DNA of 64,000 nucleotides from Candidatus Latescibacterota bacterium (GCA_965223905.1 CBDCXV010000011.1:1344001-1408000); one strand, 5' to 3'. Positions 31,433-38,533 are shown, counted from the stretch's first letter. Translations and numbers: made by a program. Notes: a model not told the origin generated them from the letters alone.

Positions 31433-31598
31433 CATCCTGACCACGGCCAATGCTTGGCTTGGACAGTTCCTCGGGAGGATGGACGAGCTAAACATGTGGG
31501 GGGAAACCGGGGTCGTGCCGAGCACTGACTAAGGCCACTTGCTTCGGGAGCACGGGTACTGGGCCAAGAACTACGATGTTCGACTACGATGAACCAGT
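31433..31598 (+). pseudogene. Third, more decayed sulfatase fragment
   Basis: Aligns by eye to 27063-27225 (ctgacc...aggatggacgagct...gagcacgggtactgggccaagaactac) with stops and indels. Confidence 0.8.
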
Positions 31599-33821
31599 GC
31601 CCGCCCGAGAAAACAGCGCTGCATCCACCTTTTTCCGGCGCGGATCGTTTTTCACCATTGGCCATACATGTCGGGTCCGCAGCCAGTGCCGGAATGCCGG
31701 TATGTCAACCAAGTCGGCTACGACTTGTCGCCGGATTTGGTTTGGGAGGTACTGCTGATAAGGACCGACCGCAAGATTACTCTCAAGATTAGCGAAAAAA
31801 AAGCCGACAGCTTCCCGCACTACCGTCTCTTTCATATGAAGATTTCCCCCCGGGTTGAGTGCTGAGTTCCCTGCGACCGCCAACCCCGCCAGACCACCGA
31901 TGGGACGAAGATCGGGCACGAGAGCGCACAACAAGGTCTGGTATCCGCTGCCACCGAAATGAAGCCACATCAACCCGTCCGGAGAATCGATGAGCGGCGC
32001 GTCGTCCTCGTCCAGACCCAACCCACGCCGTACATGCACAGCGAATTCTTGCCCGGTGGGCGCACTTCGCGCCATGTACCGGAACCCCTCCCGCACCGTT
32101 CCGCCGCCCTTCGGCTTCAGCACAATCTCCCCGCCCATCCCTTCCTGCACGTCCCAACGCTGTCCCCCAAGCGCTAAGTCACGATCCTCCGCGGGCCGTT
32201 GCGCGACATGGGCGACGATCTCGCCCGTGCTGCCGTCGACCACGGGTATGCCGCCGCCGGGGGAATCGAAGTTTGCGTGCATGCCTTTGCCGCCTTCGTC
32301 GAAGGCGTCACCCCATGACTCCCCAAGTGCAAGCCGCCCGTGATGTTCCACGAGGTACTCGGTGTTAACGAGACTCTCCACGATCGCTCCCGCGGTGACA
32401 GCCGGTTCCTCCGGCCAAACATCGCCCGCTAGGTCGAGAAGGTCGGAACGACGCCGGCCACGCGGTCTACCCTGCGCGACGAAGCTAGCCGTCTGTTGCA
32501 CGAACACCGACCACCTGCGTCCATACCCCTGGCCCTCCAAGACGCCATCGCGGGCCGAGAGCAGCATGCTGGCGAGCGCCGCTTTTTCGATTTCCCTTCG
32601 CGGAAGGGCCAGAACTCGGGTGCGACCGATTCGCCGCCCCGCCCGCCCGATTCGCTGCAACAGCGAACGGGTGTCGGGTGGTGCGCCGATGAGAGCGACC
32701 AAATCGACATCGCCGATGTCCACGCCGACTTCCAACGTGGTGGTAGCCACCAGAACTCCATCTCGCACCGAGGCAAAGCCGCGTTCCGCACGCTCTCGAC
32801 GATCACGGGACAAGCTGCCGTGGTGGGCAAACACCTCGATTTCGCGCCGCCGAGGCAATGCACCGGAGAGGTGGGCGGAGAACGTGTCGCACAGGCGGCG
32901 AGTCGGCGCGAACACGAGCGCCTTTCGCATGGACTCGCCGTGGCTGGACAGGGCCTGCCAAATCCTCCGCCCTGCACTTTTTCCGAATCCAGCGGCCGGT
33001 ACAAGGTCCAGCCGTTCCCGCAGCGTTTCGATCGTCATTGATGCTTCGAGCGGAAACCACCCTGGAGCATCCGCTGGCCCGAACACCTCGACTTCCCGCG
33101 TACCCTCAACTCGCACCACCTCCGCCTCGGGGCCGAGCAGTCGGCCTGCAAGTCCCTCCGGATCGCTGATGGTGGCGCTGCCGGCGCAGAGTTGGGGTGA
33201 AGGCGGTCCACCACCTGTCGCCAGTTCGACGTGCAGTTGTCGCAAGCGCCGAAGACGGCCCAAGAGCCAGCTGACTTGGTCGCCGCGGGCGGTTCCGTCG
33301 AACAAGTGCGCCTCGTCCACGAACACCGCCATGACTCCGGCGAGCAAGTGATCCACCACTCTACCGGCTTGCAATCGGGCGTCGCGCACCAGCATGGAGT
33401 CGAACGACTCGGGCGTGGTGACGAGCACAAACGGCGCCTTGCCCTTATCTCGGTGATCGCTGGTTTGACGTCCGCAGGCGACACCGAGCCTGTCGAGAGG
33501 CCCCTCGATTCGCGCCGTCAGGTCGTTGACGAGGGCGCGGGTGGGTGCGATGAGAAGTACACGGACACGGGGTGCGCCCCCTCGCGCTTGGTTTAGTGTT
33601 CGCGCGATCAGTGGCGCCAGAATCGCTTCGGTCTTGCCGGACGCGGTGGCCGACGCAACGAGGACGTTTCTTCCCGATCGAATCGGTGGAACCGCTCGCC
33701 GCTGGATCTCGCGGAGCTCGCGAAAGCTTCCGAAGAACGCGGTGCCGACCATTCCGAGAGACCTGACGATGTCGCTGTCACTGGTCATGATTCCCGCATT
33801 CCTCGCGTGCATCCTCATCAT
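31584..33821 (-). CDS. Lhr-like DEAH-box SF2 helicase (BrxHI/SngC-like)
   Basis: TASGKTEA, PTRAL, DEAH, SAT, HHGSL, TTTLEVGVDIGD and QRIGRAGR motifs. Confidence 0.92.
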   Translation of the reverse strand: MMRMHARNAGIMTSDSDIVRSLGMVGTAFFGSFRELREIQRRAVPPIRSGRNVLVASATASGKTEAILAPLIARTLNQARGGAPRVRVLLIAPTRALVNDLTARIEGPLDRLGVACGRQTSDHRDKGKAPFVLVTTPESFDSMLVRDARLQAGRVVDHLLAGVMAVFVDEAHLFDGTARGDQVSWLLGRLRRLRQLHVELATGGGPPSPQLCAGSATISDPEGLAGRLLGPEAEVVRVEGTREVEVFGPADAPGWFPLEASMTIETLRERLDLVPAAGFGKSAGRRIWQALSSHGESMRKALVFAPTRRLCDTFSAHLSGALPRRREIEVFAHHGSLSRDRRERAERGFASVRDGVLVATTTLEVGVDIGDVDLVALIGAPPDTRSLLQRIGRAGRRIGRTRVLALPRREIEKAALASMLLSARDGVLEGQGYGRRWSVFVQQTASFVAQGRPRGRRRSDLLDLAGDVWPEEPAVTAGAIVESLVNTEYLVEHHGRLALGESWGDAFDEGGKGMHANFDSPGGGIPVVDGSTGEIVAHVAQRPAEDRDLALGGQRWDVQEGMGGEIVLKPKGGGTVREGFRYMARSAPTGQEFAVHVRRGLGLDEDDAPLIDSPDGLMWLHFGGSGYQTLLCALVPDLRPIGGLAGLAVAGNSALNPGGNLHMKETVVREAVGFFFANLESNLAVGPYQQYLPNQIRRQVVADLVDIPAFRHWLRTRHVWPMVKNDPRRKKVDAALFSRAGTGSS

Positions 33822-37661: not shown

Positions 37662-37666
37662 GCCGC

Positions 37667-38533
37667 CTATGCCCTCTCGATCCAAAGGGCGCCTAGCTGC
37701 GGGCCGCCGCTGCCGTCGCCGTCGAGCGACGGCAAGGTGACGGTTGCGCCCCTGGAGATGGACGCCATGTTCGGCCCCTGATTGCGCAGGCGTTCGCCTC
37801 GGTCAGTCTTCCACCCGTCCCGGCCGAACCGGGCGAGGTCGAAGACGAACTGCGCCATCGAATACTCGGTGAAGGACTTCGTCACCGGGCGTTTGATGAA
37901 GCGCTCGTCGCGGCTCTGCCGTGCGAGCACGAACAGTGGGTACAGAGTGCGAATGGGCACCTTGCCATCTCGGTCCTTTTCCTGCCGCCGCGCAAGGTGG
38001 ATGGCGTCCTTGATAGACTCGATGAAGTCCGGCCGTACGAAGGGAAACCCCTCTAGCTTCGACTTCTCCTGTTGGAGACGCGTGAACAAGCGCGCCCCAT
38101 CCGGCTCGTCGAAGGTCGTAAGCTCCTCACTACCCAGCCGCAACGTCACTTGCTCCAACTTGTAGCTCACTTGAAAGCCGCCGGCGAAGTCGTACTCCTT
38201 TAACCGCTTGACTGGCCAGCCGGCTTCCTTTGCGGATCGAGCCAGTTGTTCTCGACGATGCCTGAGCGCCTCGTCTCGGTTTTGAGCGAGCGCGGAGCGC
38301 TGGCCATTCAAAACTGGAATCACCTCATCAAGGTTGATCCCTTTGAGCGCCTCGATTGCTTTGTCCAGAGTAGATACTTCTCCCAGACCCCTAATCTTGG
38401 GTTTCACCAGTATGGCTACGGCCTTACTCGCCTTGTCGAGCGCCTTTTTCGTGTCCACCAGAATCTCGTGCAGACGTTCATTCGTCTCTTCGGGATCTGT
38501 TTCAAAGAGAAGCTGTTCTTGCTTGTTTGCCAT
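37667..38533 (-). CDS. Hypothetical protein heading the ATPase operon
   Basis: 288-aa ORF with a helical/coiled-coil N-terminal half; stop lies 5 bp before the GTG of ATPase 1. Confidence 0.75.
   Translation of the reverse strand: MANKQEQLLFETDPEETNERLHEILVDTKKALDKASKAVAILVKPKIRGLGEVSTLDKAIEALKGINLDEVIPVLNGQRSALAQNRDEALRHRREQLARSAKEAGWPVKRLKEYDFAGGFQVSYKLEQVTLRLGSEELTTFDEPDGARLFTRLQQEKSKLEGFPFVRPDFIESIKDAIHLARRQEKDRDGKVPIRTLYPLFVLARQSRDERFIKRPVTKSFTEYSMAQFVFDLARFGRDGWKTDRGERLRNQGPNMASISRGATVTLPSLDGDGSGGPQLGALWIERA

Follow-up and report, generated by a model that had tools for sequence, protein, structure and literature searches.

We analyzed a 64,000-nucleotide stretch of the genome of a Candidatus Latescibacterota bacterium (GCA_965223905.1, CBDCXV010000011.1:1344001–1408000; hereafter, the window). 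Positions 31584–38533 hold a five-gene cassette that encodes a lead protein, three divergent ATPases, and a helicase. The cassette is probably a self-contained, horizontally mobile candidate for defense against phages or mobile elements, and falls into the ATPase–helicase class that includes Shango and the BrxD–BrxHI pair of bacteriophage exclusion (BREX) systems. Because the five genes are conserved as a block, lie on an inserted island, and frequently have defense genes as neighbors, we regard the cassette as a probable unnamed relative of Shango and of the helper modules of type 2 BREX.

Conservation of the five-gene block

The cassette consists of five minus-strand open reading frames (ORFs), which are co-oriented and run head to tail. 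The lead gene G1 (37667–38533) starts with ATG and encodes 288 aa. It is followed by the genes for ATPase A (G2, 36444–37661; 405 aa from a GTG, the alternative start being a TTG at 37685), ATPase B (G3, 35152–36447; 431 aa, ATG start), and ATPase C (G4, 33818–35155; 445 aa, TTG start). The last gene encodes a DEAH-box superfamily 2 (SF2) helicase (G5, 31584–33821; 745 aa, ATG start). The gene coordinates overlap by 4 bp at G2/G3, G3/G4, and G4/G5, and 5 bases lie between the TAG of G1 and the GTG at which G2 starts. A preliminary description, made from the sequence of the window, had claimed exactly these three overlaps and one gap. Its account of the layout, families, and motifs of the five genes was borne out by the ORFs, by Pfam and PADLOC, and by orthologue alignments. 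The starts of G2 and G3 are consistent with these alignments. The start of G5 is less sure: several orthologues begin at the position of its residue 12, and a start there would replace the G4/G5 overlap with a short gap. Promoter-like and terminator-like sites were no commoner than in shuffled sequences.

Pattern scans derived from the G1 alignment yielded 14 loci from species genomes and 11 from metagenomes, and their content was judged by tblastn with the five window proteins. All five genes stand in the order G1–G2–G3–G4–G5 at 16 of the 25 loci (L001–L005, L007–L009, L011, L013, L021, L022, L025, L026, L029, and L030), and no other order was found at any locus. Seven loci (L012, L014, L023, L024, L027, L028, and L031) are cut by contig ends and are collinear as far as they can be read. 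The other two (L006 and L010) are shortened, with a transposase gene directly downstream. The genome loci belong to Gammaproteobacteria, Binatia, Acidobacteriota/Vicinamibacterales, Thiohalobacterales, Methylobacillus, Syntrophobacteraceae, and Planctomycetaceae, and the complete cassettes from metagenomes, six in number, fall into three pairs of near-identical loci. The arrangement is kept down to 35% identity of the lead protein (L029). Frame breaks were seen in L001 and L013. Among the decayed cassettes, L006 ends within G2 and L010 within G3, each followed by a DDE transposase gene; L008 has an IS66 transposase between G1 and G2, and its truncated G5 is followed by a Mu-like transposase gene.

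We also built a quick maximum-likelihood tree of the ATPases, which has long branches and a midpoint root. ATPases A, B, and C each formed one clade, with a Shimodaira–Hasegawa-like approximate likelihood ratio (SH-aLRT) of 100 and similar inner branching, as would be expected if the genes are inherited and transferred together. The five genes move as a unit, and the synteny that a genuine system of this kind was expected to show is kept across phyla.

The encoded proteins and their wider family

The three ATPases matched PF10923 (BrxC_BrxD, formerly DUF2791), with 78 bits for G2, 86.6 bits for G3, and 57.7 bits for G4, all above the Pfam gathering score of 22.2 bits. Within the 7.9-Mb assembly of the window, this family is confined to the three cassette genes. 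The BrxD model of PADLOC, whose models have no curated cut-off, matched G2–G4 with E-values ranging from 1.2e-11 to 6e-21 (G2, 2.7e-17; G3, 6e-21). The corresponding values for the SngB model were 4.2e-6 for G2, 9.4e-8 for G3, and 8.2e-5 for G4. G2, G3, and G4 are not BrxD orthologues, since they reached 61.6, 74.2, and 42 bits, respectively, and the NCBIfam BrxD equivalog NF033438 has its cut-off at 350. In BLASTP comparisons, A and B shared 25% identity (E = 4e-9), and C was barely detectable against either. Profile–profile alignment with hhalign showed that all three are homologous across 315–366 columns (A–B, E = 1.8e-25 over 366 columns; B–C, 1.5e-17; A–C, 1.8e-13). The G3 profile gave no meaningful match to PDB sequences.

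Each of the three ATPases had been described as keeping a GxGKTH Walker A and a Walker B motif. Both motifs are present, and GxGK[TS]H and DE are invariant in the aligned orthologues of G2 (n = 14), G3 (n = 13), and G4 (n = 13). The invariant residues are G62-R63-G64-K65-H67 and D237-E238 in G2; G67-G68-G69-K70-T71-H72 and D250-E251 in G3, the best conserved of the three; and G131, G133-K134, H136, and D299-E300 in G4. Because Walker A and B are invariant in every aligned orthologue, there is no dead paralogue among A, B, and C. A QR pair is likewise invariant in A (Q299-R300) and B (Q309-R310), and the stretch that contains it has no counterpart in C. Judged from the alignments, this pair could point to a difference in the arginine finger and thereby to a set order of the subunits.

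G4 was the only ATPase folded. Its AlphaFold2 (AF2) model, with a predicted local distance difference test (pLDDT) score of 85, comprises a four-strand N-terminal domain, a disordered linker at residues 47–69, and an AAA+ module. The top Foldseek matches were Cdc6/Orc1 (2qby_B, E = 2.6e-5) and Orc4 (5zr1_D, E = 3e-5). All of the five best matches were Cdc6/Orc1 or subunits of the origin recognition complex (ORC), namely archaeal Cdc6/Orc1 and eukaryotic Orc4/Cdc6, with E-values of 2.6e-5 to 7.7e-5 and template modeling (TM) scores of 0.30–0.41. The model therefore suggests an ORC/Cdc6-like AAA+ fold for ATPase C; the assignment to this clade is soft, because other AAA+ proteins score close behind.

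The N-terminal domain of G4 (approximately residues 1–45) appears Tudor/SH3-like. In the model, residues 6–37 form four short strands (pLDDT 66–80). A profile of the first ~55 residues of 12 G4 orthologues matched 12 PDB sequences, the best being 7egs_B (E = 4e-4), and all 12 listed matches were either the C-terminal Tudor domain of UvrD/PcrA or the RNA polymerase (RNAP)-interaction domain (RID) of CarD. Pfam PcrA_UvrD_tudor (PF21196) matched 4 of the 12 G4 members, the best E-value of 0.0042 lying below the curated cut-off. These coherent but sub-threshold matches suggest a UvrD/PcrA-type Tudor-like head on ATPase C. The UvrD/PcrA Tudor domain and the CarD RID both bind RNAP.

The helicase G5 matched the Pfam families DEAD (E = 2.8e-29) and Helicase_C (E = 7.1e-20). 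Its best PADLOC match was BrxHI (E = 3.6e-71, 238 bits), covering model positions 22–506 of 698, with SngC in second place (E = 2.5e-57); the last ~190 residues of G5 lie outside the BrxHI match. Motifs I (GKT), II (DE[AV]H), III (SAT), and VI (QRxGRxGR) are invariant in 11 orthologues. The closest solved structures are those of mycobacterial Lhr (5v9x and 7lhl, E ~4e-39, profile positions 19–435). These matches class G5 as an Lhr/BrxHI-like DEAH-box SF2 helicase, in line with the intact DEAH Lhr-like helicase proposed beforehand. The well-conserved residues 418–745 (~330 aa) had no Pfam match at E ≤ 10; Lhr-type C-terminal domains correspond to a DEAD_assoc-type region in Pfam.

The lead protein G1 had no match in Pfam (E ≤ 0.01), PADLOC, or NCBIfam. 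At Pfam E ≤ 10, only CUX1_N and DUF5843 appeared, and TerB was absent. The homologues of G1 fall into 106 clusters at 90% identity, none of which is named by its source. At 50% identity, 189 representatives were found among 1.84 billion proteins (E ≤ 1e-3), and an Atlas search returned unnamed "hypothetical protein" clusters only. G1 founds a family that has no Pfam, NCBIfam, or PADLOC model. Its AF2 model (pLDDT 83.9) consists of a long helical hairpin (~14–103), a small five-strand alpha+beta domain (104–162), and a winged-helix-like C-terminal domain (165–288). Foldseek found nothing in the PDB at E ≤ 1e-3, and the wide VIA search gave a best Z of 7.6, in a range which that tool calls common; neither recognized an enzymatic fold. 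The model hints, with low certainty, that G1 is a non-enzymatic adaptor or a DNA-binding subunit. A complex prediction for G2 with G1 (score 0.01, mark 0.32) speaks neither for nor against binding. An apparent G1–G2 fusion (P0086, 484 aa) was taken as a frameshifted read-through, because its sequence degenerates past the Walker A motif, and it was not used as interaction evidence.

Profile A7, which includes distant G1 relatives, was searched against 167 other genomes of the phylum and detected a G1-family gene in 14. We examined nine of the loci with hidden Markov models from the cassette alignments and with Pfam. At all nine, the lead gene is followed by two BrxD-like ATPases, not three, and the lead proteins of these four-gene loci are distant G1 homologues (profile A7, E = 1e-6 to 1e-64). 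The four-gene cassettes, a class without a BREX core, have the lead family and the gene order of the window cassette but one ATPase fewer. At L049, L051, and L054, the match to the G4 model begins only at model position 62–87, past the Tudor-like head. In the tree, A and B form one group with all six "first" ATPases (SH-aLRT 93). ATPase C joins the "second" ATPases of L054 and L057 weakly (SH-aLRT 72), whereas the other four "second" ATPases do not join it. On the simplest reading, the first ATPase gene of a four-gene ancestor was duplicated to give the five-gene form. The cassette is no one-off but the branch with three ATPases within a larger group that has no name. The ATPase had earlier been called triplicated; three copies are indeed present, but duplication of the first ATPase of a two-ATPase family describes their origin better.

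The helicase can apparently be swapped within this family. L049 (6277–11949) encodes an 1890-aa helicase in which an N-terminal Lhr-like SF2 part is fused to a C-terminal SF1 part (AAA_11/AAA_12), and very large helicase ORFs of similar size are found at L050–L053. L057 encodes a 671-aa Lhr-like helicase. L055 and L056 are more distant relatives. At L056 (3004–8223), a G1-like lead, a short 322-aa PF10923 protein, and a second BrxD-like ATPase are accompanied by an SNF2-family helicase, which replaces the Lhr-like one.

Genomic setting and relation to known systems

The setting of the cassette was compared with that in two genomes of the same genus. In G002, sequences matching window positions 27500–29821 and 39561–41674 lie only 18 bp apart. 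In G001, the flanks are joined by a 390-bp remnant, 90% identical to window positions 38960–39350 (part of higA/higB). Window positions 29822–39560 are therefore a 9.7-kb insertion at a variable site, located within the genus between typA and the epimerase/enolase genes. Besides the five-gene cassette and higBA, this island contains small ORFs and a duplicated piece of a sulfatase gene, and its GC content is 0.59–0.65 inside versus 0.65–0.67 in the flanks. Of 60 relatives searched with the G1 profile (2 congeners, a further 34 genomes from the family, and 24 from the class), none gave a match. The examined junctions showed no flanking direct-repeat attachment site, and neither a tRNA nor an Rfam family was found within or around the island.

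The higB–higA toxin–antitoxin pair (38914–39497, minus strand) belongs to the island and lies immediately upstream of the cassette. Pfam confirmed this flank, which had been proposed before (HigB-like_toxin, E = 1.8e-10; HTH_3, E = 2.1e-7). No other fetched locus had a HigB-like_toxin match, and higBA is a neighbor, not a conserved part of the cassette. The other flanking gene of the preliminary description, a GIY-YIG-like ORF at 30741–31214, found no support: it had no Pfam match at E ≤ 1 and no relative in any fetched cassette locus (tblastn, E ≤ 1).

To survey the neighborhood more broadly, we took 124 ORFs from the flanks of the 12 longer genome loci and compared them with PADLOC (E ≤ 1e-8), and scanned first 66 and then 33 flank ORFs with Pfam. 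PADLOC matched 15 of the 124 ORFs, two of which (ClpB and a sterol methyltransferase) look like housekeeping genes. The matches comprised HEC-01A/B at L001, PDC-S02 and PDC-S01 bracketing the cassette at L002, a PtuB-like gene at L004, PDC-S02 with a type III restriction endonuclease (REase) at L006, a type I REase with PDC-S02 at L009, a methyltransferase (MTase) at L010, and a weak PDC-S03 at L013. At L011 (7881–11528), in a Methylobacillus metagenome-assembled genome, a 1215-aa type III-E CRISPR gRAMP (Cas7-11-like) lies directly downstream of the cassette. Among the metagenome loci, L021 (7644–10556) has Menshen NsnA (GmrSD_N) and NsnB (AAA_15/21 with DUF3696) directly after the helicase, L025 has a TIR protein as a neighbor, and PDC-S70 occurs with two PIN genes at L029. 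The Menshen-like pair at L021, preceded by a 95-aa ORF, is co-oriented with the helicase and overlaps its stop; it could be a separate neighbor or a functional add-on.

In an informal tally, made without a statistical test, about one-third of the immediate neighbors were of defense type, compared with about 1 in 20 ORFs farther out in the flanks. When the 4-kb flanks were compared by tblastx, the upstream context was common only within L002/L006 and within L004/L007/L008/L010, and the downstream context was common to no loci; the flank contexts are mostly independent. Defense neighbors in several independent contexts and the island insertion speak for the defense setting claimed for the cassette, but the flanks of the window gave no PADLOC match and the GIY-YIG gene is unsupported.

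PglZ, PglX, BrxC, and other BREX core models had no match among these 124 flank ORFs (E ≤ 1e-8), and Pfam agrees for the part scanned. The MTase at L010 matches type I/II MTase models, with no PglX among the 25 shown of 30 matched families. The flank, genome, and G1 scans agree with the earlier statement that PglX, PglZ, BrxC, and TerB motifs are missing. No pglZ, pglX, or brxC adjoins any of the 12 genome loci, which speaks strongly against a truncated BREX system, and no locus has a TerB gene next to the cassette. A lone 531-aa PglZ-domain ORF (71.7 bits) was seen in the window's own genome (G000), which has no BrxC, on contig C9 (663985–664563; L015). It is the only PglZ-domain ORF of the genome and is unlinked to the cassette, which lies on contig C11.

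A full match to a named system was likewise not obtained: PADLOC-DB v2 and NCBIfam match single components only, and nothing matches G1. We found no description or name of this five-gene cassette in the open-access literature searched. The passages of PMC12839542 on BrxHI and BrxD call the role of BrxD "uncharacterized" and propose that it loads or activates BrxHI. They treat BrxD–BrxHI as a type 2 BREX dyad and mention neither Shango nor a stand-alone multi-ATPase form. The cassette resembles the BrxD–BrxHI dyad of type 2 (and type 6) BREX/Pgl, which gave the best PADLOC matches, in the tight linkage of ATPase and helicase. Unlike type 2 BREX, it has no nearby PglZ, PglX, BrxC/PglY, or PglW, and it has three ATPases and a novel lead gene.

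Shango consists of the TerB-domain protein SngA, the DUF2791 ATPase SngB, and the DEAD/DEAH helicase SngC. The cassette is like Shango in being a stand-alone operon with a seemingly non-enzymatic lead protein, a BrxD-family ATPase, an SF2 DEAH helicase, and a defense-island setting. In contrast to Shango, its lead protein has no TerB match, there are three divergent ATPases instead of one, and ATPase C bears the Tudor-like head. The PADLOC scores of the cassette for SngB/SngC are also below those for BrxD/BrxHI. A further likeness, as a mechanistic analogy only, is to the ORC/Cdc6 loader of the minichromosome maintenance (MCM) helicase and to clamp loaders, which also combine several paralogous AAA+ subunits, winged-helix DNA binding, and a helicase client. 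Unlike in ORC/Cdc6–MCM, the client in the cassette would be an SF2 helicase of the monomer type instead of a ring helicase, and the context is accessory and defense-linked. No sequence-level homology to ORC/Cdc6 was detected beyond the AAA+ fold.

Three observations concern the surroundings of the cassette. Part of a sulfatase gene is present as an 833-bp direct duplication (94% identity) at window positions 26977–27807 and 29905–30733, flanking typA/bipA. The second copy lies inside the island, a third partial copy (31432–31600, ~170 bp, 78–82% identity) overlaps the 3' end of the helicase gene, and the congeners have the upstream copy only; the duplication may be a trace of the arrival of the island. 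At 42374–42913 (plus strand), where the GC content falls to 0.54–0.56 (~41–44 kb), a 179-aa ORF matches SLATT_1 (NCBIfam, E = 4.6e-10; Pfam, E = 1e-4, below its cut-off). This stretch may represent another small accessory island, one that carries a defense-associated effector domain. Finally, positions 742–18316 hold very large secreted or surface-type genes unrelated to the cassette, including a 1470-aa CARDB protein, a leucine-rich repeat (LRR) protein, an 1841-aa WD40 and Big_1 protein, and an fn3 protein; several of them have FlgD_ig-type C-termini.

Proposed function, alternatives, and significance

With these results in hand, we considered how the cassette might act. The three paralogous ATPases would form an asymmetric, ATP-driven hetero-oligomer similar to ORC/Cdc6 or a clamp loader, and the lead protein would serve alongside it as a DNA-binding adaptor or specificity subunit. 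Together, they may recognize invader DNA, a replication or transcription intermediate, or a stalled complex. The ATPase assembly would then load or activate the helicase. The cassette encodes neither a nuclease nor any other effector, and the helicase is therefore proposed as the effector motor, which would unwind or strip the replication or transcription complexes of the invader. The preliminary description had likewise suggested a hetero-oligomeric ATPase that activates the helicase, with G1 as a putative sensor. The Tudor-like head of ATPase C may tether the complex to RNAP or to another partner.

A more specific version of this mechanism appears unlikely, though it is worth stating. A heterotrimeric, ORC-like A–B–C loader would sit on RNAP through the Tudor head of C and, guided by the winged-helix lead protein, would load the Lhr-like helicase onto transcribed invader DNA. 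Such transcription-coupled surveillance would amount to immunity without a nuclease or a methylase.

Several points weigh against a defense function or against parts of the mechanism. No nuclease, toxin, or membrane effector was recognized in G1–G5 by Pfam or in the folds of G1. The lead gene was absent from the viral contigs, phage records, and plasmids searched. No real PADLOC match was found in the flanks of L003, L005, L007, L008, or the window itself, the sole match at L005 being the housekeeping-like sterol methyltransferase. The Tudor assignment comes from E-values of 4e-4 to 1, below the Pfam curated cut-off, and the likeness of G1 residues 165–288 to the winged helices of ORC/Cdc6/Cdt1 is weak (Z 5.5–6.4). 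The loci from related genomes are not independent, and PADLOC-DB v2 dates from 2023. The stand-alone anti-phage reading of the preliminary description has survived the checks on synteny, BREX, and named systems, but we infer the activity itself, and with it the defense role, from kinship and neighborhood alone.

The least improbable of the alternatives is a role in genome maintenance and not in immunity. The cassette would then be an accessory module for DNA repair, transcription-coupled repair, or replication restart, in which AAA+ factors load an Lhr-like helicase and a UvrD-type Tudor domain tethers it to RNAP. Lhr is a repair helicase, and it is the nearest solved relative of G5. The resemblance of the ATPase C head to the RNAP-binding Tudor domain of UvrD/PcrA and to the CarD RID fits such a module as well, as does the missing effector nuclease. 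We nevertheless consider it improbable. None of the 60 relatives yielded the lead gene, one congener has an empty site, the cassette is patchy across phyla, and three loci (L006, L008, and L010) have decayed by transposon insertions. Moreover, defense genes directly adjoin the cassette in many contexts, and the best PADLOC matches are defense helicases and ATPases.

The ORC/Cdc6-type fold of ATPase C and the winged-helix-like tail of G1, with its weak ORC/Cdc6/Cdt1 matches, would also suit a replication or maintenance module of an unrecognized integrative element, in which ORC/Cdc6-like initiators, a winged-helix origin binder, and a helicase would serve the propagation of the element itself. 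The island insertion with the adjoining higBA addiction module points in the same direction. This origin is very doubtful, however, because the conservation does not extend to any integrase, relaxase, or other gene of an element; only the five genes are kept while the flanks differ. The absence of the lead gene from the viral contigs, phage records, and plasmids searched counts here against an element, as do the lack of a tRNA near the island and of a direct-repeat attachment site at the examined junctions.

A decayed, functionless type 2 or type 6 BREX remnant that kept only BrxD and BrxHI would account for the PF10923 and BrxHI-like matches, but it is strongly disfavored and scarcely credible, since no core gene lies beside any locus, BrxC is found nowhere in this genome, the ATPases score 42–74 bits against the BrxD equivalog cut-off of 350, and the gene order and catalytic motifs are kept down to 35% identity of the lead protein, which indicates selection on the block itself.

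To our knowledge, the roles of BrxD/BrxHI in BREX and of SngB/SngC in Shango are not known. The cassette, read as a probable defense system, presents the same ATPase–helicase engine without a methyltransferase, PglZ, or TerB. Transcription-coupled surveillance, if true, would at the same time show how BrxD and BrxHI function within BREX. Three non-redundant, motif-intact ATPase paralogues and a possible RNAP tether are here combined in a minimal five-gene system, which makes the subunit order, the use of the ATP sites, helicase loading, and the trigger directly testable. For the family as a whole, these findings suggest that this class of modules diversifies through ATPase duplication and helicase swapping, and such variation could enter defense-finder models, where G1 now has no entry.

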